Source: Macrostomum lignano
Lineage: Eukaryota
Length of the DNA: 57,370 bases
NCBI GenBank assembly: GCA_002269645.1
Contig: NIVC01002654.1
Location: 1-57,370, forward strand
Direction of reading: 5' to 3'
How positions within the stretch are numbered: position 1 is the stretch's first letter; the number at the start of each line of letters is the position of its first letter. Both the position numbers and the translations under genes were made by a program. Positions 2,317 through 47,262 of the stretch are shown here, one piece after another. The notes below the pieces were generated by a model that was not told the origin of the DNA, ran no database searches, and saw only the letters and a program-made list of their open reading frames with translations.

Positions 2317-4252
2317 GGTCCCTGACATTTCGGTGACAAGACGTTTCGGTGACAGCCTTTTCGGTGACAATTTAGGACGTTTCGGTGACAAATTTAGACA
2401 ATTCGGTGACATGTTTTAAAAATGAAAGTTAATTTTGTCTGTAAGATAATAAACTCATGAACAAGACTTTTATACTCAGACCTCGTCATATTTTATTGTT
2501 TTGCGTTGATTTCATAACTGACTTTGTTATATCTCTACACTTAAAAAAGGGTCATCTGCATTTCTAGATAAGGTCAGTCGGCCGACGCGACACGTCAAGT
2601 CGCCTATTTTACACATTATAGCGGCATCATTTTTGCGACACTATCTGGATATATACCTGTGTTCAAGGCAATTTGTGTAAAAAATGTACATGTAGCATAT
2701 TTTCATGATCAAGTCGCCTGATCGATCTACTGTTTTGATGCAAACAAAGTTGTGGTTGTTGTATAGTTTGTTACTCTACTATCAGGGCTATGGAAGAAGG
2801 GGCCAGGACATTCCATTGCTTTATCCCAGCTGAACCCCGACCCCACTTTAATTTGTTGACCTGTTATATGGAAATAATGTATATACATGAAGAAATTTAG
2901 TCATGTACAATCTACATGTACAATTGTTGGCATGGTAGACCGGTAGACTGTTAATTGGCTGTATGATTGCTGACCATATTGACCAGGAAAGTCAAAGGAA
3001 AGAGGAGGGAAAGGACGTGAGGCCACTAAGTTAATAAATTGCATAGTTCACTTTTCAGAACTTACTTTAAATGTTTATTGCTATGCTACGTAAATAGGCA
3101 ATTCCAGTATTTAATCTTTCTTCATTGTTTGATCGATATTAGCACCTTTGATAGTTCAAATGTTGCAAAACAGTAAAGCTCGTTAAGTGAACCAATTGGG
3201 CTTAGTGAATTGAATTTCGATATCTACATGTATTTAATTACTAACAATGCTAATTCTAGAATGGCAACAAGCAACAATGATTTGGTTGCACGTTAATTGC
3301 TACCGTGATAAAGCAAAATCATTGCTAGCAGAGAAGCATTGCTTGTACGGTGATATAATGTTTGCTTTTGCCACGACACTAGGGTTAGCAAAGTACATGT
3401 AGAACAACGGCCATTGCGTATGAAATATGAATGGGCCCCCCCCATGAATTTAAAGACTCGGTATCCGAGAGGCGCTACGACTATATACATGTAACTTCTA
3501 CCAAACTCGAGCGATAGTTCTTCGAATTCTAGACGCATGCATAATTCACGGCTCTGCTGGTTCTAACCTTTAATCAGTCAAAATTTTAGTTATTTAATGG
3601 ACGCGATTACTGCCCAAAATGCAACAAAAAGCTCTTCTGCACTTATTTTAGCGCCGCGTCTGCACTTATTTTAGCGCCGCATCTGCACTTATTTTAGCGC
3701 CGCATCTGCACTTATTTTAGCGCCGCATCTGCATTATTTTAGCGCCGCATCTGCACTTATTTTAGCGGCAGTAGCTGCACTTATTTCAGTGCCGCAGGCA
3801 ATTTTGGTGCCGCAGGCGCTATTTTTTGCCGCCGTAAAACATGCACATTATTGATTTCCGTATATAACAGGTCAACAAATCAACAAACTTGACGTGTCGT
3901 GTCGGCCGACCATCAGTGTCACAATCACGTAGCAGAATAGGACACGTTTTTTTTCGGCTTCAGAAGCAGTCAATACATGTTTTGTGTACGAAAATGTATT
4001 CAGCCCGGCCGACTGACCTTTTCTAGAAATGCAGATTACCTTTTTATTCAAGTGTAGAGATATAACAAAGTCTGTTACAAAGTCAACGCAAAACGATAAT
4101 ATATGACGAGTTCTGAGTATTAAAGTCTTGTTCATGAGTTTATTATCTTACAGACAAAATTAACTCATTTTAAAACATGTCACCAAATTGTCTAAATTTG
4201 TCACCGAAAAGGCTATCACCAAAACGTCTTGTCACCGAAATGTCCAGGGACC
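2317..4252. mobile_element. Non-autonomous TIR DNA transposon (1936 bp) with about 280-bp terminal inverted repeats and an 8-bp target-site duplication. It is hAT-like by TSD length (P and Merlin are also possible) and is inserted into the 3' end of the mariner element.
   Basis: 2317-2600 (ggtccctgacatttcggtgacaag...) is the reverse complement of about 3888-4252 (...cttgtcaccgaaatgtccagggacc). Subterminal tttcggtgaca motifs recur 5 times. The flanking 8-mer tgtgagat is identical at 2309-2316 and 4253-4260. There is no transposase ORF inside; the interior carries a 23-bp tandem array. Confidence 0.75.
3590..3800. repeat. Tandem repeat of a 23-bp unit (ctgcacttattttagcgccgcat), about 8 copies, internal to the TIR element.
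   Basis: Direct inspection. The same unit (reverse-complemented, gcgctaaaatgagtgcctgcggc) recurs at about 20020-20100 and 31030-31090. Confidence 0.8.
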
Positions 4253-4262: not shown

Positions 4263-5227
4263 GGTTTTTCTCAACATAGTCTCCCCCAACCAAGATGCAC
4301 TTATGGCATCTTGATTGCAGCGCCTCAATATTACTCTTGGAAGAATTGCACCAAGCAGCTCTCAAACCAAGCAATTGCAGCATCCTTCAGCATATCATTA
4401 GTGTTAAATCGCTGTCCACAGAGTGCCCACTTAAGATATAGAAATAGGTGGAAGTCGCTTGAGGCCAGGTCTGGTGAATAGGCTGTGTGTAGCAGCTCTC
4501 AGAACCCTGTGACACTGACAGCAGCCTTGGCAATCCTGCTGGTGTGGGCTGGTGCATTGTCGTGCAGCAGCACAACACCTCGGCTCAGCATCCCTTGCCT
4601 ATTTTCCTTGATTGCCTCGCATAGATGGGGCGATTAGGTCAGCGTAATAGGCGCCTGTGACTGTGACTATCTGCTTGTGCGGTAGAAAGTCCAGCAGCAG
4701 CGGGCCCTTGGCATCCCAGAAGACGGTCAGCATAATCTTGCCCGCACTGCATGCAGTCTGTGCCTTCAGTGGTGCAGGTGAACCAACTGGCAGCCACTGC
4801 TTAGACTTGGGATCGTGGTGATAGATCCATATCTCATCCCTGGTCACGCAGCAAGACAGAAAATTGGCAGGGTCCAGATCATAGGAGTCTAGGACAAGCT
4901 TTGAGTACTGCACCCATGCAGTCTTTTGGTCCTTGTCAAGATTTGTGGGATCCATCTGGCAGAAACCTTGGACAGATGAAGATACTAGTATAGGATCTCA
5001 ATGACTTGCAGGTCAGAGTCTAGTATATGTTGCAAGTTGCCTGACTTTCACCTGCCAGTCACTGTCAACCAGAGCCTGGATGCGCTAGATGTTGTTGGCT
5101 GTGACAGCAGTCTAGGGCGTCCATATTAGGGGTCATCTTTGAGCGAGTCACAGCCTCGCTTGAACTTGGCTGCCTAGCGCTTGATAGTGAAATATGAGGG
5201 GGCAATGTCAGCGTACACACTAGCCAT
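4263..5227 (-). pseudogene. Mariner transposase pseudogene with multiple stops and frameshifts.
   Basis: ORFs 4599-4955 and 4387-4578 (-) plus adjacent frames match the mariner D,D34D transposase. There is an in-frame stop right after codon 17 and further stops or frameshifts. The C-terminus (...KCILVGGDYVEK) abuts the nested insertion at 4262/4263. Confidence 0.7.
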
Positions 5228-7240: not shown

Positions 7241-7358
7241 AAAGTATAAACTACGGAAAATATGAAGCTTAAATTAAATGGCAACCAAGGTGCCAATTTG
7301 CTATCTGGGCCCCCAGAAATGATCAGTAAAAGTCGTTTACCCGTGTTGCCCTCTTCAG

Positions 7359-7903
7359 AACGCCGCAGAGTTGAAATCAACAGTTGGGCTTCTCTGGAGC
7401 CGCAGTTTCAAGCGCCAGGGTTTCAACCCAACAGGCGTCACATCGGCTTCTTGACGGTCCGCCTGGCTGACGAGAACTCAACTAGCGGCCTCACCGAGTG
7501 GCTCTGGTCTCAGAAATTTGAATTCACCAGCTGCGGTGTTGAGAATCGGTCAGCTGTCTGTCTGTGCGATCCGGTCAATTCTTACAATGGTACGGAGTGC
7601 AGGCCCGGCTCACCGGACTGCCGCTGCACTCCGCAGGCCACCAGCTCAGACTGCAGCCTGTGCACCGACGGCACCTACAGAGATTATTCCCGCTACAGTC
7701 TTGGCTGTATCTCTTGTCAGTGCAGTCCGCATAACTTTGCCGGCCCGTGCGCCTGGAGGCACGTCGGCGACCCCGACTGGAGCCCTGGCGGCAGCGGCGG
7801 CGGTGGACTTAGCCAGCGAGTGTGCATCGGCTGTCGGCACGGGTTTGTGGGTGACAACTGCCTGGCGCCCAGAGATAATAGCGGCATGGGCCTGGCGGCT
7901 AAG
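7359..7903 (+). CDS. Coding exon encoding a laminin-type EGF-like / cysteine-rich ectodomain.
   Basis: ORF 7262-7948. Acceptor ccctcttcag|aa at 7358 and donor AAG|gttggt at 7904. Spacing CxCxxxxxxC...GCISCQCSPHNFAGPC...CIGCRHGFVGDNC is typical of LE/EGF-like repeats. Confidence 0.6.
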
Positions 7904-8009
7904 GTTGGTTATTATGTCTGCATAGTTTTTACTGTTTTTCTATGGTGATTTCATTTTATTTAAAATATTGCTCATCTTTTAAAGTATCTTATCTCATTTG
8001 TCAAAGATT

Positions 8010-8570
8010 TGCGTCTCAACATTATAATGTCACTCTCATTATCATGTAGTCACTCTTATTATCACTTAGTCACCCTTATTATCATATTGTCACTCTCATT
8101 ATCATATAAAGTCACTCTTATTATCATATTGTCACTCTCATTATCATATAGTCACTCTCATTATCATATAAAGTCTCTCTTATTACCATATAAAGTCACT
8201 CTTATTACCATATAGTCACTCCTATTATCATATTGTCACTCTTATCATATAGTCACTCTCATTATCATATAGTCACTCTCATTATCATATAGTCACTCTC
8301 ATTATCATATAGTCACTCTCATTATCATATAAAGTCTCTCTTATTACCATATAAAGTCACTCTTATTACCATATAGTCACTCCTATTATCATATTGTCAC
8401 TCTTATCATATAGTCACTCTTATCATATAGTCACTCTCATTATCATATAAAGTCACTCTTATTACCATATAAAGTCACTCTTATTACCATATAGTCACTC
8501 TGATGATCATATAATCACTCTTATTATCATATAGTCACTCTCATTACTGCATACTCGCTCTCCATCGCAC
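8010..8570. repeat. Minisatellite, about 20-21-bp unit (tcactctcattatcatatag), about 27 copies, in intron 2 of the TM gene.
   Basis: Direct inspection. Confidence 0.85.
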
Positions 8571-8876: not shown

Positions 8877-9410
8877 GTAGGCTAGTGTCAGATCCAGTTG
8901 CTGACAGTGTCATAGAGAGGGTGTCAGATCCTGTTACTGACAGTGTCATAGAGAGGGTGTCAGATCCAGTTACTGACAGTGTCATAGAGAGGGTGTCAGA
9001 TCCAGTTACTGACAGTGTCATAGAGAGGGTGTCAGATCCAGTTGCTGACAGTGTCATAGAGAGGGTGTCAGATCCAGTTGCTGACAGTGTCATAGAGAGG
9101 GTGTCAGATCCAGTTGCTGACAGTGTCATAGAGAGGGTGTCAGATCCAGTTACTGACAGTGTCTTAGAGAGGGTGTCAGATCCAGTTGCTGACAGTGTCA
9201 TAAAGAGGGTGTCAGATCCAGTTGCTGACAGTGTCATAGAGAGGATGTCAGATCCAGTTGCTGACAGTGTCATAGAGAGGGTGTCAGATCCAGTTACTGA
9301 CAGTGTCTTAGAGAGGGTGTCAGATCCAGTTGCTGACAGTGTCATAAAGAGGGTGTCAGATCCTGTTGCTGACAGTGTCATAGAGAGGGTGTCAGATCCA
9401 GTTACTACTT
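8877..9410. repeat. Minisatellite, 36-bp unit (gtgtcagatccagttgctgacagtgtcatagagagg), about 15 copies, just downstream of the TM gene stop. Each unit contains an inverted repeat (tgtcag...ctgaca).
   Basis: Direct inspection. ORFs 8713-9381 (-) and 8885-9469 (+) are in-frame repeat artefacts. Confidence 0.85.
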
Positions 9411-10180: not shown

Positions 10181-11479
10181 TTTTATACCAATTTTAAACA
10201 TCCGCGTCATATGGTTTGAATTCAATTTTTCCGGTTTCAACTTTTTTTCTGTCTTGGTTTGGCTGTGCTTTTCTCGTTTAAGCTGCAACATTGCTATTGT
10301 CTTAATTTACCGTGTGAAATCTTTTCCATTTCTAGCGATTATTTCTGAGCAGCTGTTAGCAGTGTAACTATATAAAGTACATGTTTATATTGGTTACTTA
10401 TATCTACTACTTGTGAAAGACGCACAGCTTATGTTAAACCAGCGGCTGCTTAGCAGAGATGAATATTGTGAGCAAAGTTGGTAATAATGTTATTTTTACT
10501 CGCTAAATATATCAGATGCAACTTGCACAACTATCTCTATCACATAAAAAACGTTAAAGATTTTGTTTCAATAATTTCATCAATAAAGATTTGCGCCTAG
10601 CGAATAGGACTAGAAGTGGTTTGCAGTGAAACGCAGTGTGTATTTTAAAAATAAAACAGACACAACAAATTAAACAAGCGTAATAAAACTTACTACTACT
10701 GAAGATAGAAGTTATTAGTAGTAAGTAATGCAACCAGTAGCCAAAAAAGACGTGCGTGCGTAAGAGAGAATGTTTTTATCTACTGATACGATTCAGCAGA
10801 TTCGTGCACTTATATATTTTTAACTTATTTTAACAAACACGATTGACAGATAAGACTATTGGACTGGAATCCAGTCAGACCTTTATCCAGTCAGTCTCGT
10901 ACTGAAGAGTAGTACAGGCAATACGCATTGTAAAAGTACGCGTGTACTTTACTATTGCAAAAGTACATGCGCACTTTACTTGATCAAAAGTTGTGTACGT
11001 TTGTACACACGCAAGCCAAATGTACATGCATTATAGGGAAAAGTACCTCTAGTACTTAACCGAGAAAAGGAGCAATAATAAAATGAAGATTCGCTAAGTG
11101 TAATGAGTCATAGTATGGATACAAATCAAACTCAATAAGAGCACTAAGAAGCCGTAAAAATTCGAATACTTCGCACAAAGAGTAAAGCGTGGTGAGTTCT
11201 GTCCTGACTCCAGTCTGATCCATCACAAACTTAAGTTATATATTCTATTAAAGAGCAATAATAAAGGATTAGTTTAACAACAATTCGACAGCTGATGAGG
11301 ACTGAGGGATGCCGTTAACAGAAGATATCCGCATTATAAGTATAGTTTTGTAAGATCTGCATACGCTATTGAACAGAATCATTAAATTAAAATGTTTTCT
11401 GGGTGTTGAATAAAATGAAGGAATTGAAGAAATAAAAACAGTGTGCGGAAACAGAGGAAAAGACAGGTGGATGGATAAA

Positions 11480-12110
11480 AAGACTAAACACGGTGGTATT
11501 AACGGAACAACACATGAATGGGAAGGACGCAGGGAGATGAAGGGAAGAGACTGAAATAAGGGAAGAAGAGAAGAGACACAGTGAGATGAGAACAGACACA
11601 GGGAGATGAAGGGAAGGGACGCAGAACGATGAGAAAAGACACAGTGAGATGAAGGGAAGAGACGCAGGGAGATGAAGGGAACAGACCCAGTGAGATGAAG
11701 GGAAGAGACTGAGGTGAGGAGAACAGACACAGTGAGATGAAGGGAAGAGACAGTGAGATGAGGAGAACAGACCCAGTGAGATGAAGGGAAGAGACACGGT
11801 GAGATGAAGGGAAGAGACACAGTGAGATGAAGGGAAGAGACAGTGAGATGAGGAGAACAGACCCAGTGAGATGAAGGGAAGAGACACGGTGAGATGAAGG
11901 GAAGAGACACAGTGAGATGAAGGAGACAGGTCCAGTGAGATGAAGGGAAGAGACACGGTGAGATGAAGGGAAGAGACACAGTGAGATGAAGGAGACAGGT
12001 CCAGTGAGATGAAGGGAAGAGACACGGTGAGATGAAGGGAAGAGACACAGTGAGATGAAGGGAAGAGACAGTGAGATGAGGAGAACAGACACAGTGAGAT
12101 GAAGGGCACA
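11480..12110. repeat. Minisatellite, about 23-bp unit (gagatgaagggaagagacacagt), about 27 copies, directly 3' of the CRELD stop.
   Basis: Direct inspection. ORFs 11269-12109 are repeat artefacts. Confidence 0.85.
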
Positions 12111-12112
12111 GG

Positions 12113-12450
12113 TTATCTCCTGCCGGCGTGCAGGTAGACCCTATCCAGCACAGAGCTCTGCTTGCACAGATACCAACCAGCCAAGCAGGCGGCCACTGTC
12201 ACAGGCGCTGGCCGACCCTTCACCGCCACAGCGAACACAGCCAGGCCAACGATAGCGCCGAAAAACTTAGCAAACTCGATGCTGTAGGCCACTGTCCAGA
12301 TCAGCTTAGGCGGCTTGCCTTTCTTATTGCCCGACTGGCCTTTTTTAGTCTGCTTTGAGTTGGCCGACTTCTTGCTTGACGCTGCCGGTTTTGGCACGCA
12401 TTGACTGCCCGAGCGCTGGTAGCCTGGCTGGCAGTCGCACCGGTAGCTGC
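12113..12450 (-). CDS. CRELD: CRELD (cysteine-rich with EGF-like domains) exon 4: end of the second cbEGF, a polybasic linker, two C-terminal transmembrane helices, and the stop.
   Basis: Acceptor ttccacag|GCAGCTAC. The join ...CVNLPG|SYRCDCQPGYQRSGSQCV completes a cbEGF exactly. The tail FFGAIVGLAVFAVAVKG...AGWYLCKQSSVLDRVYL aligns with human CRELD1 FFGIIICALATLAAKG...TGYWLSERSDRVLEGF. Stop at 12113-12115. Confidence 0.75.
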
Positions 12451-12479
12451 CTGTGGAACAGGGATGAGACTAGAAATGA

Positions 12480-13620
12480 GTCTAGGAATGAAGTCTGAGG
12501 TAAGATCGGACAGATAGAATACAGGGTCGGACAGATAGAATCCAAGGTCGGACAGATAGAATTTAGGGTCAGACAGATAGAATACAGGGTCGGACAGATA
12601 GAATCCAAGGTTGGACAGATAGAATACAGGGTCGGACAGATAGAATACAGGGTCGGACAGATAGAATCCAAGGTCGGACAGATAGAATCCAAGGTCGGAC
12701 AGATAGAATTTAGGGTCGGACAGATAGAATCCAAGGTCGGACAGATAGAATCCAAGGTCGGACAGATAGAATCCAAGGTCGGACAGATAGAATCCAAGGT
12801 TGGACAGATAGAATCCAAGGTCAGACAGATAGAATCCAAGGTTGGACAGATAGAATCCAAGGTCGGACAGATAGAATACAAGGTCAGACAGATAGAATCC
12901 AAGGTCGGACAGATAGAATCCAAGGTCGGACAGATAGAATACAAGGTCAGACAGATAGAATCCAAGGTCGGACAGATAGAATTTAGGGTCGGACAGATAG
13001 AATCCAAGGTCGGACAGATAGAATTTAGGGTCGGACAGAAAAAATCCAAAGTCAGACAGATGGAATCCAAGGTCGGACAGATAGAATTTAGGGTCGGACA
13101 GATAGAATCCAAGGTTGGACAGATAGAATCCAAGGTCGGACAGATAGAATCCAAGGTTGGACAGATAGAATCCAAGGTCGGACAGATAGAATCCAAGGTT
13201 GGACAGATAGAATACAGGGTCGGACAGATAGAATACAAGGTCGGACAGATAGAATCCAAGGTCGGACAGATAGAATTTAGGGTCGGACAGATAGAATCCA
13301 AGGTCGGACAGATAGAATTTAGGGTCGGACAGATAGAATCCAAGGTCGGACAGATAGAATTTAGGGTCGGACAGAAAAAATCCAAAGTCAGACAGATGGA
13401 ATCCAAGGTCGGACAGATAGAATCCAAGGTTGGACAGATAGAATCCAAGGTCGGACAGATAGAATCCAAGGTCGGACAGATAGAATCCAAGGTCGGACAG
13501 ATAGAATCCAAGGTTGGACAGATAGAATCCAAGGTCGGACAGATAGAATCCAAGGTCGGACAGATAGAATCCAAGGTCGGACAGATAGAATCCAAGGTCG
13601 GACAGATAACATCCAGAGTC
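12480..13620. repeat. Minisatellite, 21-bp unit (gtcggacagatagaatccaag), about 54 copies, filling CRELD intron 3.
   Basis: Direct inspection. ORFs 12301-13698, 12345-13655 and 13060-14046 are in-frame artefacts. Confidence 0.9.
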
Positions 13621-13631
13621 GGACGGCTCAC

Positions 13632-14102
13632 CTGGCAGGTTAACGCATCTCTCATACGGCCCCGTACAGTGTGGACTGTCCGGGCTGCATTCGTTCACGT
13701 CTTGACAACCGGATCCGGTGGTCGCGGGTTCGAATCCTGGCGAACAGGCGGTGCAGCCGGCCTGGCCGGGTCCGGAGCAGGCGGAGCAGGCCCGGTCGCA
13801 GTCGCCGCACCGGTAGCTGCCGGGCAGGTTCTCGCAGAAGCTCCTCGGCCCACTGCACGGACTGCGGGTCTGGCATTCGTCGATATCAACACACGCGGCT
13901 CCGTCAGCTTGCTGGACTGTCTCGTAGCCGTCGGCGCACTGATCGCACTGGGTGGCCAGCGGACCGGTGCAGGCGCTTCGACAAGCCGGGCTGCAGGCTT
14001 TGCATTCGCCGTTGCTCTCGCCGTTGGCGCGGTAGTATTTGGCTGAGCAGTCCGAGCACTGAGCACCTGAGTAGCCCGGGTGACAGTCACATGCGCCAGT
14101 GC
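13632..14102 (-). CDS. CRELD: CRELD exon 3: EGF/furin-like repeats and cbEGF (TGACDCHPGYSGAQCSDC...CVDIDEC...CQDVNECSPDSPHCTGPYERCVNLPG).
   Basis: Acceptor tccaaatatcag|GC and donor CCAG|gtgagc. The 471 nt have no stops and align collinearly with human CRELD1 SGHCDCQAGYGGEACGQC...CVDIDEC...CLDVDEC. Confidence 0.85.
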
Positions 14103-14379
14103 CTGATATTTGGAATTATAAGGGAGATTGCTTCACTGGTAAACACCTGTCACGGTTAGCACTTAGCAGTTTAGCTGCAACTGGAGGGCAAAGGCCCAAT
14201 CAGTTTACAGTACAGACAGAAATAATCTGTAAACGGACACAGACATGAACTCAGGGCAGACACAGACAAACTCAAAGTGGACACAGACAGACTCAGAGAA
14301 AACAGGCACACTCAGAACGGACAGACAAACTCGAAGTAGTCATAGACACACTCAGAGAGGACACAGACACTCAGAAAAG

Positions 14380-15560
14380 GAGAGGACACAGAAAATCTAC
14401 AACGGACACAGACAATCTACAACGGACAAAGACAATCTACAATGGACGCAGACAATCTATAACGGACACAGACAGTCTATAACGGACACAGATATTCTAA
14501 CAACGGACACAGACAATCTACAATGGACACAGACAATCTACAATGGACACAGACAGTCTATAACGGACACAGACAATCTACAACGGACACAGATATTCTA
14601 ACAATGGACACAGACAATCTACAACGGACTCAGACAATCTACAACGAACACAGACAATCCACAACGGACACAGACAATCTACAACGAACACAGACAATCT
14701 ATAACGGACACAGACAATCTACAATGGACACAGACAATCTACAACGAACACAGACAATCTATAACGAACACAGACAATCTATAACGGACACAGACAATCT
14801 ACAATGGACACAGACAATCTACAACGGACACAGACAATCTACAATGGACACAGACAATCTACAACGGACACAGACAATCTACAACGGACACGGACAATCT
14901 ACAATGGACACAGACAATCTACAACGGACACAGACAATCTACAACGGACACAGACAATCTACAATGGACACAGACAATCTACAATGGACACAGACAATCT
15001 ACAACGGACACAGACAATCTACAACGGACACGGACAATCTACAATGGACACAGACAATCTACAACGGACACAGACAATCTACAATGGACACAGACAATCT
15101 ACAATGGACACAGACAATCTACAACGAACACAGACAATCTATAACGAACACAGACAATCTATAACGGACACAGACAATCTACAATGGACACAGACAATCT
15201 ACAATGGACACAGACAATCTACAACGGACACGGACGCAGACAATCTACAACGGACACGGACACAGACAATCTACAACGGACACGGACACAGACAATGTAC
15301 AACGGATACGGACACAACGGACGGTCGGACACAGACAAACTACAACGGACACAGACAATCTACAACGGACACAGACAATCTACAACGGACACAGACAAAC
15401 TACAACGGACACAGACAATCTACAACGGACACAGACAATCTAAAATGGACACAGACAATCTACAACGGACACAGACAATCTACAACGGACACAGATAGTC
15501 TAACAACGGACACAGACGATCTACAATGGACACAGACAATCTACAACGGACACAGTCCCA
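14380..15560. repeat. Minisatellite, 21-bp unit (cggacacagacaatctacaa), about 56 copies, filling CRELD intron 2.
   Basis: Direct inspection. ORFs 14245-15652 are artefacts. The unit is related (about 65%) to the intron-3 unit. Confidence 0.9.
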
Positions 15561-15566
15561 GCTCAC

Positions 15567-15717
15567 CGGTCCGAGTCCCGTTCCCATTGCAGTCGCCGCG
15601 GCCGCCGGAGCAGTCGGGGCAGGGCGCGCACTCCGGTCCCCAGCGGCCGTAGACGCAGCAGGCGGCGGTGCCGTTGACGCAGACAGAATCGCGCAGGCTG
15701 GCAGAGGTCGGGTTGGC
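15567..15717 (-). CDS. CRELD: CRELD exon 2 (ANPTSASLRDSVCVNGTAACCVYGRWGPECAPCPDCSGGRGDCNGNGTRTG).
   Basis: Acceptor ctctcccgcag|GCC and donor CGGACCG|gtgagc. It matches human CRELD1 LCSDSLKLCCPAGTFGPSCLPCPGG...CEGEGTRGG. The phase joins exon 3 to give CNGNGTRTGGTGACDC. Confidence 0.85.
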
Positions 15718-15929
15718 CTGCGGGAGAGATGCCCGAGTGTTTTGGATTTTTTGGTAATTCAATAAAAGAAGAGGCTGATGAGAAATCAGCTTTAGGTAAC
15801 GGACAAAAAGTCTGTCAAGTTTATATCCTCAAAGATTTTGATTGTAAAATTTCTGTATTTTTTATCACATCCAATGCTTAATAACATTTTCAAATATAAG
15901 ACATTCCTTAAATCCCGAGACACTCCTGA

Positions 15930-16160
15930 CATTCCAAGAAATTTCCCACACCCAGACATTTCCCACACCCCAGACATTTCCCACACCCCAGACATTTCCC
16001 ACACCCAGACATTTCCAACACCCCAGACATTTCCCACACCCCAGACATTTCCCACACCCCAGACATTTCCCACACCCCAGACATTTCCCACACCCCAGAC
16101 ATTTCCCACGCCCGACATTTCCCACACTACAGACATTTCCCACACCCCAGACATTTCCCA
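15930..16160. repeat. Satellite, about 17-18-bp unit (ccccagacatttcccaca), 5' block, in CRELD intron 1.
   Basis: Direct inspection. Confidence 0.85.
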
Positions 16161-16164
16161 ACCG

Positions 16165-16603
16165 CAGAGACATCAGGGCGGTTACCATGGCCCTCTCGGG
16201 TCATGGCTGCTTTGCCAGGCATCGTTACCTCCAGGAAAAAATCCGCAGTGAGGAATGCCCTTTCTGCCTCTCCGGTGTCGAGAATGCGGAGCACTTCATC
16301 TGTGAATGCCCCGCCTTTACTCAGGACAGGCTCACCTACCTCGGCCCAAACCCGGACCTCTCCGACGTTTTCAGGCCCGAGAATCTCTGCCAGCTCGTCC
16401 GCTACCTAAGGGCTACCGGGCGAGCGACAATCCACCTCCTGGACTCTCCGGAGGGGGACCGCGCTGCGGACGCCGGCGCCACCGGAACTCCCTGCGCGAC
16501 ACCGCAGCACTAGCTGCCCGTGGTCGCCAGGGGTTAGCGAAATGGGCGGCAACGCCTCCTCGCTGTTTCCGGACGCACGGAGCCCCCTGCAGCTAAGTCA
16601 AGT
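16165..16603 (+). mobile_element. 5'-truncated non-LTR retrotransposon (Jockey/CR1/L2-type LINE) 3' end: the ORF2 C-terminal Cys/His motif plus 3' UTR, embedded in the satellite.
   Basis: ORF 16187-16513: ...ALSGHGCFARHRYLQEKIRSEECPFCLSGVENAEHFICECPAFTQDRLTYLG. The tGHg.F..YL......C..C....E...H....CP....R signature is characteristic of the ORF2 C-terminus in Jockey/CR1-group LINEs. The terminal 45 bp (ctgtttccggacgcacggagccccctgcagctaagtcaagtaag) recur at about 56305-56350. Confidence 0.65.
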
Positions 16604-16604
16604 A

Positions 16605-17065
16605 AGACATTTCCCACACCCAGACATTTCCAACACCCCAGACATTTCCCACACCCCAGACATTTCCCACGCCCGACATTTCCCACACTACAGACATTTC
16701 CCACACCCAGACATTTCCCACACCCAGACATTTCCAACACCCCAGACATTTCCAACACCCCAGACATTTCCAACACCCCAGACATTTCCAACACCCCAGA
16801 CATTTCCAACACCCCAGAAATTTCCCACACCCCAGACATTTCCCACGCCCGACATTTCCAACACCCCAGACATTTCCCACACCCCAGACATTTCCAACAC
16901 CCCAGACATTTCCAACACCCCAGACATTTCCAACACCCCAGACATTTCCCACACCCCAGACATTTCCAACACCCCAGACATTTCCCACACCCCAGACATT
17001 TCCAACACCCCAGACATTTCCCACACTACAGACATTTCCCACACTACAGACATTTCCCACACCCC
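16605..17065. repeat. Satellite, about 17-18-bp unit (ccccagacatttcc[c/a]acac), 3' block, in CRELD intron 1.
   Basis: Direct inspection. ORFs 16542-17141 are artefacts. Confidence 0.85.
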
Positions 17066-17303
17066 AGACATTTTCCACATCCCGGACATCTTCAACCTGA
17101 GATAGCTCCCACATCCCAAGCATTTCCCACATCCCGGACACTTCTTACCTCATACAATTCAATGTCCCAGACATTTCTCACGTCCTAGAAAACTGCGGCA
17201 ACACTAGAAATTGCCGAACAAACCCCCGGGAAAACCTTTAAGTTTTTAAAATTGTTGAACGCTTCAAAACTTTGGCACAAATCCGAAATGAACTTTCACC
17301 AAC

Positions 17304-17669
17304 CTTGAAAGCGCCAAACCAGAACTTCTCAATGTCCTCTTCAATCTTCTCTAGCATAGCGTGACACTCGCTAGAGGTCACACCGTCCATCTCATTGTCT
17401 TTGTCCTTGCAAAGCCGGTCTGTGATGTCCACCAGCCGGGTCTCGCTGAGCGCATAGGTGCCCAGCCGGGTCTCCTCCCAGTTGGTGTTGCCGCCACCAA
17501 AGTTGTCCCGAGCGGTTCGCTCCAGGCCTCGCTGGAATGCGGCAGCAATGGCGCTGCACGCTCGGCATTGGGAGCTGAGCTGTTGAGAATCTGGGCTGCC
17601 TGATCGGGCCACATGGGATATGAGTGACAGCAACAGGCCTAAAGATGCCAGTTGGTGAATGAGTGGCAT
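17304..17669 (-). CDS. CRELD: CRELD exon 1: signal peptide (MPLIHQLASLGLLLSLISHVA) and the WE/DUF3456 domain (CRACSAIAAAFQRGLERTARDNFGGGNTNWEE...SETRLVDITDRLC...FWFGAFK).
   Basis: ORF 17238-17705 (-). The track start at 17705 is a TTG; the first ATG is at 17669. Donor AAG|gttggt at 17303. Strong match to human CRELD1 CHTCRGLVDSFNKGLERTIRDNFGGGNTAWEE...SETRLVEVLEGVC...WWFH. Confidence 0.8.
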
Positions 17670-20600
17670 AGTTGAATTTTGGCTGCCTGTGTCTGAATCC
17701 TTCAAGCATGAAATGTTGTGGTAAATTGGTCTAAATAAGCAATTCAGTTTAAACTATCAAACTGCAATTTACAGCCAGTATTTTAAAAACAATAAGTAAA
17801 TAAAATAATTTTTTGTAAGGCTGGCTTAGTAAGGCATAGTAAGGCTAACCACTGCTTATTAGATAGGGTCTTCTGTGTAACTTTTTAAAAATTATATACC
17901 AATTAACCAATATGCTATATTGGGTCTTTTTCTGTGGGTACAGTTATAGTCAAATTTTTCTTTCTTCTATATTGGCAACCATAGGAACAATTGCCTCTAT
18001 CTACAATGCACATTCAAGTTTCATTAGATGTGTAAATCTAAATTTTTCTTTTATGACTTCTAATTTCCTCTGATTTGGCATTTAATTCTAGTTTAGAAAA
18101 AGATTAAAGCAGATTAAATAAATTTTTAATTAAATCATTAACATTATAGCCAAACAATTCTTAGATATTTAGTATAGGCAAAAGTAGACTCATAAGCTTA
18201 GTAAGGCCTCATATGTAAGCCTCAGAAGCAAGGTACCCTAGTACTTACAGAAATCCTAGGCTTTGGAGAGATGTTTGATACCTTAGTAACAAGCTTTTAA
18301 CTGGTTATAGAACTGCCCAATAATACAACTAATATCTTAATTGCATATAACAACCCTGCCTAAAGTAAGAATCTCCATGAGATTGTTAAATCTAGGAATT
18401 TTTTGAATATGCTAAGCTAAAACATTGCTATTTCAAGCATAAAATTCATTCATTAATTAGTTTGTTAACTAAGAAAGAGGGTCACTCTTTTGTCATAAAA
18501 AATGTGGAATATAGGAGCCTAAACTTTTCTATAGAAAATAGGTACAGTTGTAAAGTCAAAATTTTTCATTGAAAACAAAATTTTCAGCAAGGTATATTTG
18601 TAGAAATCTAAGGGTACATAAAAAGAGAATAATATTTTAATGTTTCCAATTAAAATTTACATTGGCATTGTCGTTCTATATCTAGATATGCTTAATTTTT
18701 TCTTTTGTATGATTTCTAAAGAAAAAAATGATTTCAAACTTCCAAAAACTATATATAACAACATAACTACTTGCAAAACTACATATACAGAGCAAATATT
18801 TTAGGAATAAATCTGTCACTTATTAAGTTCTCAACTATATCAAAAAAGTAATGTTTTACTAGGGGCAGTAGGGCCTAGGCCAATTTAAAATAGAATCTAA
18901 ATCTAAGAAAAGAAAAAAACAGACTTTTGAAGGTTTTCAATACTAAATTGCAAGACAAATCGAATAATAAAAGTCTTGAAATCCAAGATTTTGCCACTCT
19001 TGATGAAATTTGGGCTCAAATATTACAGGTATAAGGCAAGAGTAACCGTATTAATATTTAGTGTAAAATGCCCTGTCATATAATCAGTTTAATAAATGCA
19101 TAACTAAAAGCATTTTTATACACTTTATGCTAGTTCCTAACATATAATCCTAGCTTTAGAGCTAGAATCTAAAATTTAGAGCATATAAAAAGTTCCTCAC
19201 GAATGAAATTTAGGTACCAAAATACTTCTGTTCTGCTTGCACTTGTACGTTTTAATGAAAAATCCACTAACTCAATCTTCTACTAAACTAAAGTTAAGTT
19301 CTAGATTTCTAACTTAACTTGTTACCCGTTATAGATTAAAACCGAATATGTATCTATCATTAAAATAATACCTTTCTGGACAAATCCTAATGCCTCGCGT
19401 CACAGTATAAATTAATTAAATATACAGTTTTTAGAAATCGAATAACCTTTTCTTAGAAAGAAATTATAAAGTAAATTATCGCCATTTCGTGGCATCGATA
19501 ACGTTTGAAAAACGCATGATTAAAAGAAATAAGAACATGAAAGTTAGCACTCACATAAGATTAGCGACATGAATTTCGACTTGGGTCAGACATATTCAGG
19601 CTCATAAGTGTAATGAATGTGCGATCGAGAGAAAACCTGTGTTTGTCAAAAGTATCAGAAAGCATATATAGTATGCATTAGTCAAGCGAGATGCGATCGG
19701 GGGGCTAAGAAATCGATAGCAATAGCAACGTAGATGATTGGGAGACGGGGTGGCTGGGGTGCAGGTGAGCATACAATAAAATACAATTACACATACATAC
19801 GGACTACTATATAAACGACAATTAAGTAGTCCGTACACGTACAGTCGTACATCACTGACAATACGGAAATACAAACGATTGGTACACGTGTATTTATTAA
19901 TTGATAAATTTTGACGAAAATGTGTCAATAAAAGTCAAAATATTGTCCATTAATTGATAAAGTCAATTGCTATTGCTAAAGTCTTGCAAAGAGCTGAAGG
20001 TGTGGCACTAAAATGACTTCGCTAAAATGAGTGCCTGCGGCGCTAAAATGAGTGCCTGCAGCGCTAAAATGACTACCTGCGGCGCTAAAATGAGCGCTGA
20101 CAACACCTATTCTGAAAATAGTACATGTAGGAATTCAGTCATGTACAAATTCTTGGCTTTGTCCCCCGGGCGGTACATGTACGTTATTTCATGCAGTTTG
20201 TCGAGAGAATGTCGCACTGTTGCCTGCATGGCGCTGCAAGCACCTTACCGGCAAGCTGGACATGCAAGTACGTTAATTTCGTCGACTGCCCACAGGCTTC
20301 CGCGCCCTTGTGACTCTGCTATCATATATTCTTCATGAGTCGTTTTTATATCAGCTAGTATTGCTGTTGTTTGTGTGAATCTCAGGTCTTTGTTCAGAGC
20401 AAACATTTGAAATAGTTTTAAAGAAAACGAGGGCCAACCTCAAAGCAGAGATTCTACGTCTCCTGACGATGAGAGAGAGTCAGGACCACTATACGCCCTG
20501 TGTAAGCGCGCTCGGAGTTCGGTGGAACGGAACAGTTGTTCAAGGACGACTACCATCGGTATAAATTGATTTTAATAAAATCTTGGACTAAAGGATCGCC

Positions 20601-21847: not shown

Positions 21848-23359
21848 TCACACAGTCTCTTCATAATAATCATTCATAGCCTCTTCGGGAATCGCGTCCT
21901 CCATTGTCGAATTTTGATGCGACAGCGTCAGCTTGCGATGGGGCGATGCGAGCGCGTGCAAATCCAAGTTGCTGCTGGCCACCACCTGGCTGCCGTCGAC
22001 GAGCACCAAACTGGCGTTGAGATTGTGCGCACTCTTGATCATGTCCTCCACCTTCTGCTGGTTGTCTTCCTCCTTCTGCCGGAAGCGTGGTAGCAGCAGG
22101 ATGCTAAAGATGACGGATCCGACGATGAATAGGCAGCCGCCGAATGAGAAGGGCAAGCTGTACTTTGTCCGCTCGTTGTACAGAGAGGCCGTGATGGGCG
22201 ACCCGATGCAGACGCTAATTCCTCGGGCCAGAGTGACGAGGCCAAATGCGTTGGTGAGATTGTCTAAGCCAACCAGTTTGCAGAGAACCTCGGAGGTCAG
22301 GGTGACGACAGGGGCGAGGCAAATGCCGAGGATTGTGTACACTGTCAGAAGCGACCAGAAGCCGGTACAGAAGTTCAGCAAGATGCAAAACACGCCGCTC
22401 AGAAGCAGCGATAAATTGTTGAGCAGCAGGGCGGAAACCCGCGGGTTGCTGGCCAGGCCCCCGATGGCGATCCTGCAGACGGTGTTGGCGGCGCCGAATG
22501 CGGAGTTTAGATAGCGAGCCTGCTCCTCCGACACGTCAATTTCCCGAGCAAACGAACTCACAAAGAACAGCGGAACGTAGAAGGCCAGCATAACGATGAG
22601 GTTTGCTATCCAGATTATCACAAAGCCAAGGTCCTTCATTAGGCCTAGATCCACCATCATAAGAAAGGCGTCAACGATCGGTTTGGGCAGGCAACGCAGA
22701 CACTTTGGCGGCGTTAGAAGATTGACTGGCGGTGACAGGTCGCCAGTTGGGGACTGCATTGGTGGCGCCTCTCCGGGGATGCGAGTCATGGACAGGAACA
22801 GCTGACTGGGCGCCAGCGACTGTTGCGATCTCCGAACTCGAGCGCTGGTCAGATTCATCACCGAGCCGCTGTAGAAGATGTCTCGACGGTAGAACGGCCT
22901 GCGCAGATCCGCCAGGTTTGCCGCGGTTACGCCGGCTCGAATCTGCGCAATGTCGAATTGTCTCGCCCTGGCTACCTTGGCCGCCTTGGACTTGCGCACC
23001 GCACGTCGACGAGCAAATAACCCTGGTAGTGACTTCAGTAGAGCGTCCGGATCGCTCAGATTGCCCATCGAGCTTACGTCGAAGCCACTGATTGTGCTGG
23101 AGAACATGCGCCGGTCGGAGTCGAGGCGCTTCTTCGGGAATGGGCGAGACAACTGGCGCTGAGCCAGAGGCGACTCCGGCAGTGCGGGCATGGCCTCCGG
23201 GATAGTCGCTAGCTGACCGCCGACGCCACCTGCGTTTCCTGGCTCCTCGCTGTCGAGTCGCGTCCTGCGCACATACTGCTCAGCCAGTTGGTCCATCGTG
23301 CCCTGGTCAGGAGGCTGAACCGCCTCAGCCGATGTCGCTGGGGCAGCCGTCCCGGTCGT
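21848..23359 (-). CDS. Monocarboxylate transporter, 3' part: a long cytoplasmic loop plus TM7-12 and C-terminus. It lies in a different frame from the 5' part.
   Basis: ORF 21848-23848 (-). Six hydrophobic helices (...FVIIWIANLIVMLAFYVPLFF...LLSGVFCILLNFCTGFWSLLTVYTILGICLAPVV...GLVTLARGISVCIGSPITASLY...FGGCLFIVGSVIFSILLL). The frame switch lies between about 23340 and 23440. A candidate 77-nt GT..AG mini-intron (23360-23436; weak donor ATT|gtttct) would restore the frame; otherwise it is a genuine frameshift. Confidence 0.7.
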   Translation of the reverse strand, partial: TTGTAAPATSAEAVQPPDQGTMDQLAEQYVRRTRLDSEEPGNAGGVGGQLATIPEAMPALPESPLAQRQLSRPFPKKRLDSDRRMFSSTISGFDVSSMGNLSDPDALLKSLPGLFARRRAVRKSKAAKVARARQFDIAQIRAGVTAANLADLRRPFYRRDIFYSGSVMNLTSARVRRSQQSLAPSQLFLSMTRIPGEAPPMQSPTGDLSPPVNLLTPPKCLRCLPKPIVDAFLMMVDLGLMKDLGFVIIWIANLIVMLAFYVPLFFVSSFAREIDVSEEQARYLNSAFGAANTVCRIAIGGLASNPRVSALLLNNLSLLLSGVFCILLNFCTGFWSLLTVYTILGICLAPVVTLTSEVLCKLVGLDNLTNAFGLVTLARGISVCIGSPITASLYNERTKYSLPFSFGGCLFIVGSVIFSILLLPRFRQKEEDNQQKVEDMIKSAHNLNASLVLVDGSQVVASSNLDLHALASPHRKLTLSHQNSTMEDAIPEEAMNDYYEETV

Positions 23360-23436
23360 CTGACTGATAGCTGGTGCAGGCGGATCCGGGACCCGGCGGC
23401 TGATGCAGGAACTGAGGCTGCCATGCCAACAGAAAC

Positions 23437-24360
23437 AATCGGCGGCTCGTTCGGTCGAAGTAAGGCGCCCAGGACGGCGCCATTTAGCGCGATGCCGGAC
23501 AAGATCATCAGCGTGTTCTGCCAGCCCATGGACTCCAGCAGCGCATTGGTGACGGGCCCCATTACGATGGTGCCAATGCCCGTGCCGCAGACGGCGAGGC
23601 CCATGGCCAGGGATCGGTATCGCTCGAAGTAGAAGCTGACGCAGACCACGCACGGCAGGTAGAGAAGGCCGTTGCCAAAGCCGCTGATGATGCCGTAGGT
23701 GACTGTCAGCATCCACAGCTTCGTTGCGAAGCTGCTCAGGAAGAATCCTGCGCTGGCGACCACGGCACCGGCCATGCAGACCGGCCGACAGCCGAACTTG
23801 TTGACCAGCGCGCCGACTATAGGCCCGGTGAGCATGCCCACTCCGCATAGAAGTGAACCGATCAGCATCACGGATGCTTTGTCCGCTTGGAAATAGTCGC
23901 AGAAGTCCACCAGCATCAGACCGAACGAATTGGCGATGCCATCGACAATGAAGCTGACCATCATGCTGGCGAAAGTGACAACCCAGGCGTAGCCGCGGTC
24001 CAGCGGCAGTGGCAGCACATCCTCGGCAACAACGGGCACCATTTCAATCTCGTCGTCGTTGTCGCTTCCAACCTCCTTGCTGCTGGCATCTTCCTCCAAG
24101 CCCCCGGAGTTGCTGTTCACCGACTGACGGGTTGGCGATTGTGGCGGCGACCGCGACATCCGGAAGGAATAGCGCTTTGCTCTCGCCGTCGGTGATGTCG
24201 GTGATTTCGGCGAAGTAGGTGATGTTGGCGTTTGCGGCGATGTAGGAGAAGTCGGAGAAGAAGCCATCACGAGCTTCGTTGACTCAGTGTGACCTTCGCC
24301 TCCGTCATCGTTTGACGATTGCGCGGTGGCGATTTTTTCCCCGTTGCTGTTGTCAGACAT
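23437..24360 (-). CDS. Monocarboxylate transporter (SLC16/MCT family, MFS), 5' part: a Ser/Pro-rich N-terminal extension plus TM1-6.
   Basis: ORF 23209-24420 (-). The track start at 24420 is a TTG; the first ATG is at 24360. DRGYAWVVTFASMMVSFIVDGIANSFG...LIGSLLCGVGMLTGPIVGALVNKFGCRPV...GLLYLPCVVCVSFYFERYRSLAMGLAVCGTGIGTIV matches MCT1 DGGWGW...VNKYGSR... collinearly. Confidence 0.8.
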
Positions 24361-25789
24361 GCTGCTGAGCACCTTGTGCTTCTCGTCGATAAGAATTGGG
24401 CCGAAGTCGGATGAAAGCAAACAGTACGCAGATGGAGATTAAGATTTTTCAGTCCTTAACTGACCGAACCTATTTTGAGTTGAGATTTCTCATGTGCTTA
24501 TAAAGCAGAGCAGGCCATGTGCCTTAGGTAACTGGGCAGCAGCAGGGTCGTCCTGAGGTCACGGGTACTTAGTAAACCCTCTAATTTTATTCGGCTTCTT
24601 GTGCACGTCTAATACCTTGTTTTGAGCTTCAACCTTTTACTTTGAACAGTTTGTACTCGGCTGTCGGGCCTCAGCTTGTGTCCTAAGGTTTTTTTTCAAT
24701 CAAAAAGCCACAAATATATACATGGATTTTATGCATGCACCGCGCTCCCTGTGCACAGCGATGAATTTGGACGCAAGCAGAGGTGGCGTACTTTCTTGTC
24801 TGCACACACCGACTGCTGTTTACAGGCTTTGCGGGGAGTTGCTGGATGGGTTAGACCTAGCTCCGACAGTCGGCTCTGGATTGGACCGGGTGCCGGTCTC
24901 GTCATGTGCTTTAGAGCCGATCCTCCTCCTCATCCTCCAGCTGTGTATTCTCTCACCCTAGCGACTTTCCTTCACCTACTGGCCAGCAGTAGCCCCAGCC
25001 AGCTCTCTGTGTGTGGCCTCTTGGCCGAGCCGTACTCGGTGAGGCGCCTGTACGCAAATCGCAAGACAGCTTCAGAGTCTATAGTCGCATGCAGTTGCAG
25101 GCACACATCTTGTAGAGAGGAGTCTGAGGACGCCACCCACACTGCACTGCGAGATAGACAGGATAGAGGGATAGACAGATAGATGCAGTTCTGTCTGTGC
25201 GTTCGTTGACCAAAATAAGCCACCCGCGCCGTACTTGAGCCGCCGTGAATCCAGTTCGGCTTAGTCAGAAAGTAGCCTATAGCCCGATACTAATCAGACA
25301 GTGGTGGAGCGAGCGCGTCATAGAAATGTCATAATAAATTTAATTATTAACTCCTTTCTTTGGGAGTTAAATCGCTAGCATAACGTTTTATACTGTTGCA
25401 ATTTAGCTTCCTGGCAACTTTTTTAGGCATGCGTACATGTTGTTTATTGTACAGCTCATGTAAAGTAGCGGAGTGTACAGCAACATTCTTCCAACCCCCC
25501 CCCCCACTCTACCACATCTGCCCACATTCATTGGGGGCAGATTTCCCTACTAAAGAGATATATAGAGGAGGAAAGGCAAGAAGAGAATTATAGATTTTAT
25601 TGTTAAATTTAAGAGGCAAAATATATTGTATAAAAGGCTTTCGTATTACACAGTAATTGCGTGAAATTCAAAAGGATTCAAGTAAAGTTATAGTACTATC
25701 TAGTAGCTACATGCACATGCATTAGGCATTGACAGACTGCATCAGATGTCTGCGCGCTCTCGATCCAATGCGATCTCTCCACTACATCT

Positions 25790-38073: not shown

Positions 38074-39265
38074 CTAAAAAATTCTGAGTTGACGGCTAGC
38101 CCCACTTATCGCAAGTTGGTTATTTAATGTGGGCTGTTTGGTCTTAATGTACAGGGCTTCTAATAGGCAGAGCATGTGATCTCTATTACAAAAATCAATT
38201 GCCTTTATCATTTCGTGTGGTTCAGCCTCACAACAGGAATTGTAGGTTAGCAGGTATTCGTTAATAGCAGAGTTTTTTAGCCAGTGCTGTCTGACCCTCG
38301 TGTATAAGTGTCGTTTAGTTTTTCCTTTAAAGTGTTCTTCTGGTTTGCAGTCATTGCAGTTAGTGCATTCAAGGAGGTGAGTTTGTATAGCAGATGGTTT
38401 GAGCCAGTGTTCCCTGATCCTCGTGTGTAGGTGTCTTTTGGTTTTCCCCACGTAGGAGACGCTCTGGTCCACAGAGCAGTTAAATTGGTAGACAACACCT
38501 GCACGCAGAGTACAAGGAACACGCGACTTTAATCTGCTAACAAAGTTCCCAATCTTGTTCGTGTGGAAGACGACCCGGATGTTACGATTGAAAGAGGCAA
38601 AGAATAACCTACGCATTCTGTTTTTAAAGGCTAGAGATGGAGGTCTGAGGAAGGGGAGACGCAGAATGGGTTCAAATTCTTCAGTGGTAACAGATTGCTC
38701 AGGTTTTTGTTTGGTGATTTTGTCCGAGATGAACTTGTTGATGATTTTTTGGACCAGACAAACGGGGTAGTCATTTTGATGGAACAGTCTGGTGAGGAAC
38801 TGCACCTCCCGGTCAAAGTTGATCCAGGTGTTACAGGTAGTGAAAGCTCTATGGAGCAAACACCTCACGAGCCCAGTTTTCCATTGTCTGGGGCAAGTGG
38901 CTTGGAAGTTGAGAATGAGATTGGTAAAGCTTTTCTTACGGAAGACTTTTGTGGAGAGGGTTTCCTTACTGTAGTCAATGTCAATCTCCAGGAAGGGGAG
39001 TCTTTGGTCAACAGCATGTTCAACCGTGAATTTTATGTTCTTATGAGTGGAGTTGAGAGCGTGGAGGAACTGATCAATTTTTTGCTCCTGATCAAAGATG
39101 GCAAACGTATCGTCGACGTAGCGCCTGTAGAATTTGGGGGCACAGTTGAAAGACACCAGATTTCGGTTTCCCAATGGGCCAAGCAGACGTTCGTCAGAGT
39201 GGGGGCCAAGGGGCTTCCCATGGCACAGCCATCAACTTGCCTATAGTATTTATTGTCAAACATAA
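38074..39265 (-). mobile_element. Penelope-like retroelement (PLE), 5'-truncated: the reverse-transcriptase C-terminal half plus the GIY-YIG endonuclease domain, with an internal frameshift.
   Basis: ORF 38074-39174 (-) carries the RT motif FYRRYVDDTFAIF and GIY-YIG (VVYQFNCSVDQSVSYVGKTKRHLHTRIREH). The second GIY-YIG segment is partially duplicated (GKTKRHLYTRVRQHWLKNSAINEYLL). The upstream frame 39033-39263 has RT box FDNKYYRQVDGCAMGSPLAPTL. The element is cut off at about 39265, where the 24-bp satellite begins. Confidence 0.75.
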
Positions 39266-40700: not shown

Positions 40701-41779
40701 TGTAAATTGTTTTGTCCCGCGAAGCGGGTCTACCTGCTAGTTATATCTAAAACCTAAGCCGTTTGCGATGTGCAATTTTAAATCTCTAGAATCAAAAGAC
40801 TAAGAGAAATGCGAAAATAAGTTTTTGACGCACAGTTAATTAAACTTTATTAGTAGATATTTATAGCGTAGATTGATAAAAAGATTCGAATAAAAAATAG
40901 CAGGCTTTTTATACCAAAATCATCCAGCCATCTTCAGGTAATCGGAATTATAATCTCTTAATTATAGTCACACTGCACACCTGCCGCTCACGCTTATCCT
41001 GAGTTTCTGCTTCGTGCATAATTAGACTGAATTATTCCTTAGGATCACATATTTACGAGCCAACTCACAGAAGCGCAAATATCTTTATCAGCAGACTTGC
41101 ATCTTAGTAGGCAGTTAAGAGCTCGATCTGCTAGAATCGGAGCCGAACAAAATTAGCTAATAAATTTAATGCTAATTCTATGCAAGCCTTCATTTATTTG
41201 GGCCTATCCCCCTTTGCAGGCTTCTACAGCCTCTTCTTTGCTTCAAGTCAGTCAGTCAGTCAGTTATCCTGCGCTAGAGGGGAGCTCGCTTAATTTTCAT
41301 CGTTCTCCGCTGCCCCTTTCTAATTCCTCTCTCTCTCTCGCCATCCCTCTTCTATGCATCCTCGTCGCTCCTCTTCAGTCCGTCTCTTTACTTTCACTCT
41401 CACACTCTGCGATGGTGCTCTTGCCTAGCGATTCATTCCCTACTGGCGTGACAACTCCTGTCCCTAGCCAGGCCTTCGTGGTCCGTTGGTCTCGCTTTCT
41501 TTCCTATCCCCTTCTCTTATTGAGGGGAATTAATTTGCTCCATCCCTTCCGCCCAAGGCCTCCAGTCTCTCTCTGTCTCTCTCTCCTCTCTAATGCTAAT
41601 CATAATAAGCTCGCCGCAATTTCTCTATCGGGATATTCGCTCAGGGTTGGGCAAGTTAAGATCGATAGTTTTTATATTATTTAATAATGTAATATACTGT
41701 AAAACGTGTCAGAGAAATATTCATCTGGCGTCAACTTGGCTGACATCTTTGTTCAATTCAAAGTTTTGTGGTGTAATGA

Positions 41780-46454: not shown

Positions 46455-46479
46455 GTGAGTCTGTCTGCATCCTCAGGCA

Positions 46480-47260: not shown

Positions 47261-47262
47261 AG

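Follow-up and report, generated by a model that had tools for sequence, protein, structure and literature searches.

The stretch of DNA analysed here, referred to below as the window, is contig NIVC01002654.1 of the flatworm Macrostomum lignano (assembly GCA_002269645.1), covered at its full length of 57,370 nucleotides (57 kb). On its minus strand, between positions 17669 and 12113, lies an ordinary four-exon gene of the CRELD family of endoplasmic reticulum (ER) chaperones, the model of which is already deposited, and tandem repeat arrays make up about half of one of its introns and nearly all of the other two. When the splice sites around the junctions proposed in an initial annotation of this DNA were enumerated, one combination of GT..AG sites alone gave an open frame, with donors and acceptors at 17304|15717, 15567|14102 and 13632|12450. 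The spliced coding sequence (CDS), 17669-17304 + 15717-15567 + 14102-13632 + 12450-12113, encodes a protein of 441 amino acids that is identical to residues 12-452 of GenBank protein PAA56195.1 (BOX15_Mlig007061g1, 452 aa), a record titled "hypothetical protein, partial". The four-exon CRELD orthologue is thereby upheld together with its three acceptor positions, whereas the donors had been given as 17303, 15566 and 13631, which are either one base off or name the first base of the intron. The 11 additional N-terminal residues of PAA56195.1 are encoded by the open frame that precedes the first ATG, and the partial GenBank CDS begins at 17702. These residues explain the length of about 455 aa reported initially, which is approximately reached (about 453 aa) only when counting starts at the TTG at 17705 and is not obtained from the first ATG.

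The distribution of the protein along the exons is as follows. Exon 1 (CDS 17304-17669), defined by the splice enumeration, the identity with PAA56195.1 and the Pfam match to PF11938, carries the ATG, a signal-peptide-like helix and the WE/DUF3456 domain with its CXXC motif; exon 2 (15567-15717) encodes the end of the WE domain and the start of a Cys-rich region. Exon 3 (13632-14102) contributes the EGF/furin-like Cys repeats, the first calcium-binding EGF module (cbEGF) and the start of the second one, and exon 4 (12113-12450) the remainder of the second cbEGF, a Lys/Ser-rich linker and two C-terminal hydrophobic helices, ending in the stop codon at 12113-12115. The three introns, all GT..AG, measure 1586 bp (intron 1, 15718-17303), 1464 bp (intron 2, 14103-15566) and 1181 bp (intron 3, 12451-13631). 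As the GenBank models of the Mlig_3_7 assembly (NIVC01) are based on a transcriptome assembled from RNA-seq with the genome as a guide (PMC5730564), and as the deposited CDS skips the arrays, there is indirect transcript support for the junctions, and the arrays are intronic and not exonic.

A consensus-like donor, GAG|GTAAGA, is present in intron 1 at 17143-17150 (minus strand), just before the 18-bp array. The donor that is in use, AAG|GTTGGT, is weaker and lies about 155 nt upstream. Splicing at the consensus-like one would bring in an in-frame stop at 17238-17240.

Judged from its sequence, the product is a membrane-type CRELD, similar to vertebrate CRELD1 and C. elegans CRLD-1A. Pfam matches above the respective cut-offs were obtained for DUF3456 (PF11938, the WE domain; 31 bits vs. 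21.1), EGF_CA (PF07645; 38.4 bits vs. 27, in two stretches) and cEGF (PF12662; 29.8 bits vs. 26.6). In the homology search, all the family-named matches from E 1e-78 to 1e-33 were CRELD1 or CRELD2 proteins, from cnidarians, sponges, lophotrochozoans, tardigrades and vertebrates, followed by fibulins, whose matches are limited to about 25% of the query, the EGF part. The family assignment made initially is borne out by these matches and also by an alignment of 33 homologues, in which the motifs NFGGGNTxWEE, SETRL and EExxExxW are invariant or at least 90% conserved, as are, at the latter level, C35 and C38 of the N-terminal CXXC (C35-R-A-C38), the PDI-like site that belongs to the defining features of the family (PMC6245729). 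The cbEGF starts DIDEC and DVNEC are both present, and the 441 residues include 40 cysteines. At the N-terminus, residues 1-23 form a hydrophobic stretch (mean Kyte-Doolittle value up to 1.71), modelled as a helix at 3-22, which resembles a signal peptide. At the other end, hydrophobicity is strong in the first C-terminal helix (residues 386-406, Kyte-Doolittle 2.2), and the AlphaFold2 model, with a mean predicted local distance difference test (pLDDT) score of 81, shows a disordered basic linker at 354-377 followed by a helical hairpin (378-405 and 410-440, with a four-residue turn) at pLDDT 71-81.

The C-termini of the homologues fall into two classes, one with an acidic tail ending in xDEL and the other with a pair of hydrophobic segments that have Lys/Arg between them; the flatworm sequence aligns with the latter and not with the xDEL class. 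An end of the CRELD2/CRLD-1B type, x[DE]EL, was found at no end of an open reading frame (ORF) in the six frames of the window. C. elegans produces a membrane and a KDEL form from one gene by means of an alternative last exon, whereas in the M. lignano window no alternative KDEL-type last exon was found, the single motif for the second half of a cbEGF being that of exon 4. The predicted order of the protein would thus be signal peptide, helical WE (DUF3456) domain with CXXC, EGF/furin-like Cys-rich region, two cbEGF, basic linker and two-helix hairpin. This organization is shared with CRELD1 and CRLD-1A (PMC6245729), which have a signal peptide, a WE/DUF3456 domain with CXXC, EGF and cbEGF modules and two C-terminal hydrophobic helices with a short basic turn between them. 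The flatworm protein differs from other animal CRELDs in its sequence (about 35-40% identity) and in a longer Lys/Ser-rich linker before the helices, and from CRELD1/CRLD-1A in being encoded in only four exons. By homology, it would act as a disulphide-isomerase-like chaperone of the ER membrane, both the location and the PDI-like activity being those expected of the family. In both worms and mice, CRELD1/CRLD-1A promotes the assembly of acetylcholine receptors (PMC6245729), a role for which the gene may interest users of M. lignano as a model.

Proteins of M. lignano with 96-98% identity to the prediction were also detected by the homology search. One of them, PAA68607.1 (98% identity), is collinear with it at each of the three junctions. 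In a third copy, PAA87523.1 (Mlig018256g1), exon 2 contains a frameshift and exon 3 is read in an alternative frame (corresponding to 13695-14090 of the window, minus strand); this copy is either pseudogenised or the result of an indel error in the assembly. Three homeologous subgenomes have been reported in the neopolyploid M. lignano (PMC10733133), with which three copies agree, and the locus is one of three near-identical copies, probably homeologues, of the single CRELD-type gene of the species. None of the GenBank or UniProt records of this gene bears the CRELD label. The UniProt models (A0A1I8H9F4 and others, 313-328 aa), titled "Laminin EGF-like domain-containing protein", reach no further than exon 3, stopping inside it or at its end. 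Two of them, A0A1I8H9F4 and A0A1I8GZS2 (328 aa each), terminate at the boundary between exon 3 and intron 3 (13632), which suggests that the array of intron 3 broke an earlier assembly or gene prediction. The locus thus illustrates how introns laden with minisatellites can truncate gene models, as in the older 328-aa ones. The name of membrane-type CRELD can be given to the three "hypothetical protein" records (BOX15_Mlig007061g1, Mlig014948g1 and Mlig018256g1) and to several truncated models of UniProt.

The arrays of the locus were delimited with Tandem Repeats Finder (TRF) on positions 11000-19000, and the lengths of their units were obtained by dividing the introns, read on the minus strand, at a fixed anchor. 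Intron 3 contains a 21-bp minisatellite (12502-13624, sense unit CTGTCCGACCTTGGATTCTAT) of 53.5 copies, with 89% matches, no indels and a score of 1798; its 52 split units all measure exactly 21 bp, in agreement with the roughly 1.1 kb of 21-bp repeat described initially. The intron 2 array (14384-15555; 57.4 copies, score 1729) has the sense unit CTGTGTCCGTTGTAGATTGT and is continued at its 3' end by degenerate 21-bp units (14235-14376) related to it (z 4.1). A period of 21 bp had also been ascribed to this intron, but 43 of its units measure 20 bp vs. three of 21 bp, with a few of 26 bp, and the unit quoted for it has itself 20 letters. Similarly, the period of intron 1 is 18 bp and not 17 bp, with 29 units of 18 bp vs. 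five of 17 bp and three of 16 bp. The intron 1 minisatellite (sense unit GGAAATGTCTGGGGTGTG) is present as an upstream block at 16605-17144 (30.5 copies) and a downstream block at 15937-16168 (13.2 copies), which have in common the unit and also its variants (GTAG and CGGGCG variants). All these arrays are given here as read on the minus strand, the sense strand of the gene.

Altogether, arrays account for 772 of the 1586 bp of intron 1 (49%), 1321 of the 1464 bp of intron 2 (90%) and 1123 of the 1181 bp of intron 3 (95%), so that the description of the introns as almost entirely minisatellite applies to introns 2 and 3 but not to intron 1. In intron 3, the DNA outside the array is restricted to 7 nt at the donor end (GTGAGCC, followed by a degenerate first unit) and 51 nt at the acceptor end, and the array of intron 2 begins 11 nt after the donor. 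When up to three mismatches were allowed, each consensus unit matched the window 34-53 times, where about none would be expected by chance, and all these matches lie within its own intron. The best self-match of the intron 3 array occurs at a shift of 336 bp (92.1% vs. 89.7% at 21 bp), which indicates the duplication of a block of 16 units and is a trace of past unequal exchange.

A further array, which the initial annotation did not include, starts 7 nt after the CRELD stop codon (11514-12106, minus strand; about 23 copies of a 23-bp sense unit, about CCTTCATCTCACTGTGTCTCTTC, pyrimidine-rich on the sense strand). Since it begins so close to the stop, the 3' untranslated region (UTR) must run into it, and we infer that the array is part of the 3' UTR or directly adjacent to it. 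The signal AATAAA is absent from the sense strand within this array.

With periods of 18, 20, 21 and 23 bp according to TRF, and 13-57 copies, these arrays consist of head-to-tail units within the range of about 10-100 bp that defines minisatellites. They resemble the intronic minisatellites (variable number tandem repeats, VNTRs) of human and other genomes in their 18-23 bp units repeated head to tail over 0.2-1.3 kb, and also in their variant units, block duplications and location in introns and beside a stop codon. Unlike in known VNTRs, their density is far higher, at 49-95% per intron and 21% of the window. Copy-number polymorphism is what defines a VNTR, and the arrays may be hypervariable, as proposed initially, although the block duplication in intron 3 is a sign of past exchange only.

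Between the two blocks of intron 1 lies a dispersed-repeat fragment of 436 bp (16169-16604, plus strand, thus antisense to the gene), which amounts to 27% of the intron. Its ORF of 108 aa (16187-16513, plus strand) carries a zinc-knuckle motif, CPFC...HFICEC, and has relatives at 62-84% identity in two unnamed proteins of the ENA database and one "secreted protein" of M. lignano, the copy in this species being that with 84% identity. The only Pfam match is a sub-threshold one to zf-RVT (E 0.082 for this ORF; two relatives gave 0.019 and 0.83). The 12-nt sequence AGACATTTCCCA is found on both flanks of the insert, as fits a target-site duplication, although it is confounded by the array's own period. 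The fragment probably represents the 3' end of a non-LTR (long terminal repeat) retrotransposon truncated on its 5' side, comprising the C-terminal zinc-knuckle end of ORF2. A truncated insertion of a long interspersed nuclear element (LINE) is resembled by the last 108 codons with their C-x2-C ... H-x4-C motif, a tail of about 90 nt, the 12-nt sequence on both flanks and the further copies in the same genome; unlike a typical LINE insertion, the fragment has neither a reverse-transcriptase domain nor a poly(A) tail, and its zf-RVT match is sub-threshold. Hence, the initial description of one satellite in two blocks separated by an inserted repeat is correct, and the label of "LINE tail" is plausible but not proven.

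Minisatellite-filled introns are not specific to the CRELD gene but typical of this repeat-rich stretch of the genome. TRF arrays occupy 21% of the window, with about 26 arrays of some 20 unrelated families. A neighbouring POU-domain gene on the plus strand (44586-47261), with exons at 44586-45401, 46075-46454 and from 46722 onwards that encode a continuous POU-specific domain and homeodomain, has introns of 673 and 267 bp that are 67% and 71% minisatellite, formed by a 30/60-bp array in the first (45496-45947) and a 28-bp array in the second (46490-46679). When the three CRELD and two POU introns were taken together, each was 49-95% array, with 75% overall, vs. 16% for the rest of the window; as both genes were noticed for their arrays, this contrast is only a lead. 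At the level of the genome, simple and tandem repeats amount to 15% in M. lignano, and a gene has about five introns, of 1.1-1.4 kb on average (PMC5730564). The CRELD introns, of 1.2-1.6 kb, are therefore of average length, and the gene, which had been called compact, is not unusually so for the species.

The last ORF of the POU gene continues in frame into a 21-bp array (47021-47261, plus strand), which it reads as HPHCIHI heptads up to a stop at 47229. These heptads are a candidate coding repeat, an unrecognised intron or a UTR.

The arrays of introns 2 and 3 had been described as clearly related 21-bp paralogues, and a single ancestral unit could have seeded both and diverged to periods of 20 and 21 bp. 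Both units run in the same orientation and have CGGACA and AATC in common, and the two introns open with GTGAGC, with the array almost directly after. When the two units were aligned in their best rotation, the score was 5, which 3% of the shuffles attained (shuffle mean 1.0, standard deviation 1.9). The pair has z 2.45 (0.26 in the reverse orientation). However, when all pairs of the 16 array units of the window were compared in both orientations, this pair ranked only 7th of 240, among pairs without any plausible relationship, whereas the intron 2 unit and its own degenerate tail reached z 4.1. In addition, the periods differ, neither unit has a match in the other intron at up to three mismatches, the degenerate 21-bp tail of intron 2 falls outside the top 20 pairs when compared with the intron 3 unit, and the 20 array families of the window have no more k-mers in common than shuffled ones (P 0.15-0.24). 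The relationship between the two units is thus weak at best, and their common origin is improbable. A core motif common to the minisatellites of the window, comparable to the human minisatellite core, was also sought in these families and discarded, as their 4-, 5- and 6-mers behaved like those of the shuffles (P 0.145, 0.177 and 0.237, respectively).

A function of the arrays as cis-elements, either as clusters of splicing-factor sites or as length-dependent modulators of CRELD expression, could be suggested by their position next to the splice donors and by some peculiarities of composition. Each intron 2 unit contains an acceptor-like TTGTAG, and there are 55 AG dinucleotides in that array, whereas the sense strand of the intron 3 array has none; in the intron 1 array, G accounts for 45% of the sense strand, and there are nine relaxed G-quadruplex motifs (loops of up to 12 nt). 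However, the lack of AG in a single 21-nt unit is expected by chance, no canonical G-quadruplex motif (loops of up to 7 nt) was found in the intron 1 array, and its G-quadruplex fold gains no more than 0.4 kcal/mol over a plain hairpin, so the G-quadruplex potential of this G-rich array was discarded as a candidate. Furthermore, comparable arrays with unrelated units are found in the introns of the POU gene and in much of the intergenic DNA, so that a gene-specific role is not needed, and we regard such a function as very unlikely. Even harder to sustain is that some of the array sequence is coding, for instance through retention of intron 3. A minus-strand ORF (12301-13698) does cross from exon 3 through the entire 21-bp array without a stop, giving an open frame of 465 aa with (YLSDLGF)n, but such a frame is the automatic outcome of a 21-nt unit without stop codons. 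As intron 3 has 1181 nt (3n+2), the read-through would reach exon 4 out of frame, with loss of the cbEGF and of the transmembrane segments, and the deposited CDS, which already contradicts a coding array, is collinear with all the homologues without that of intron 3. The long ORFs of the locus had been attributed in general to periods divisible by three, which applies to intron 3 only; those on the plus strand of intron 2 appear because its 20-nt consensus unit has no stop triplet in any frame of that strand. No match to structured RNAs or tRNAs was obtained in Rfam and ARAGORN scans of the whole window.

Taken together, it is likely, and we hold this with good confidence, that the locus is a CRELD1-like gene with introns of ordinary length, whose arrays grew in place, are spliced out and are not specific to CRELD. 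The 18-, 20- and 21-bp families would each have expanded within its own intron by slippage or unequal exchange, that of intron 1 being split later by the antisense insertion of a 5'-truncated retroelement. Bounded by the sequences that splicing needs, the arrays may have expanded as far as the splice signals permit; the 51 nt that precede the acceptor of intron 3 would accommodate a branch point and a polypyrimidine tract. Once spliced out, they would most likely be neutral passengers of a genome rich in tandem repeats. Several points weigh against this interpretation. The growth in place and the neutrality of the arrays are themselves inferred, and the junctions rest on the deposited transcript-derived model and on homology, not on RNA-seq reads. 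The Mlig_3_7 assembly contains errors (PMC10733133), and the copy numbers of the arrays may be inaccurate in it. The second C-terminal helix of the protein is weakly hydrophobic, with a mean Kyte-Doolittle value of about 1.05 over 17 residues (hand calculation; cut-off 1.3). Finally, the CRELD and POU genes were not picked blind to their arrays.

A broader proposal, which we consider doubtful, is that the introns of M. lignano are preferentially built from locus-private minisatellites that expand up to the splice signals, so that tandem expansion would be what mainly sets intron size. If this were true genome-wide, with introns enriched over intergenic DNA, it would represent an unusual mode of intron evolution. 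The arrays would matter only if such a genome-wide enrichment of private minisatellites in introns were shown, or if their length affected expression; beyond annotation, the finding otherwise matters little.

Other features were detected in the window. A gene for an MFS_1 transporter (21848-24420, minus strand) is represented by two overlapping ORFs with a switch of frame near 23300, due to a short intron or an indel, and has no tandem array inside. An ORF with a GIY-YIG domain (38074-39174, minus strand), possibly from a Penelope-like retroelement, adjoins a 1.3-kb minisatellite with a 24-bp unit (39391-40710), and a fragment of a mariner-type transposase (Pfam Transposase_1, E 9.5e-15) is found at 4599-4955 (minus strand). 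An ORF with a laminin-type EGF domain and a hydrophobic C-terminal tail (7262-7948, plus strand) is directly followed by a 20-bp array (8023-8546) and a 36-bp array (8885-9403). Finally, the short arrays of 21-23 bp at 3636-3796, 20020-20094 and 31024-31087 belong to one family of units which, unlike the arrays of the CRELD introns, is dispersed; the first two are related with z 6.75, and the third was placed by eye from its TRF consensus.

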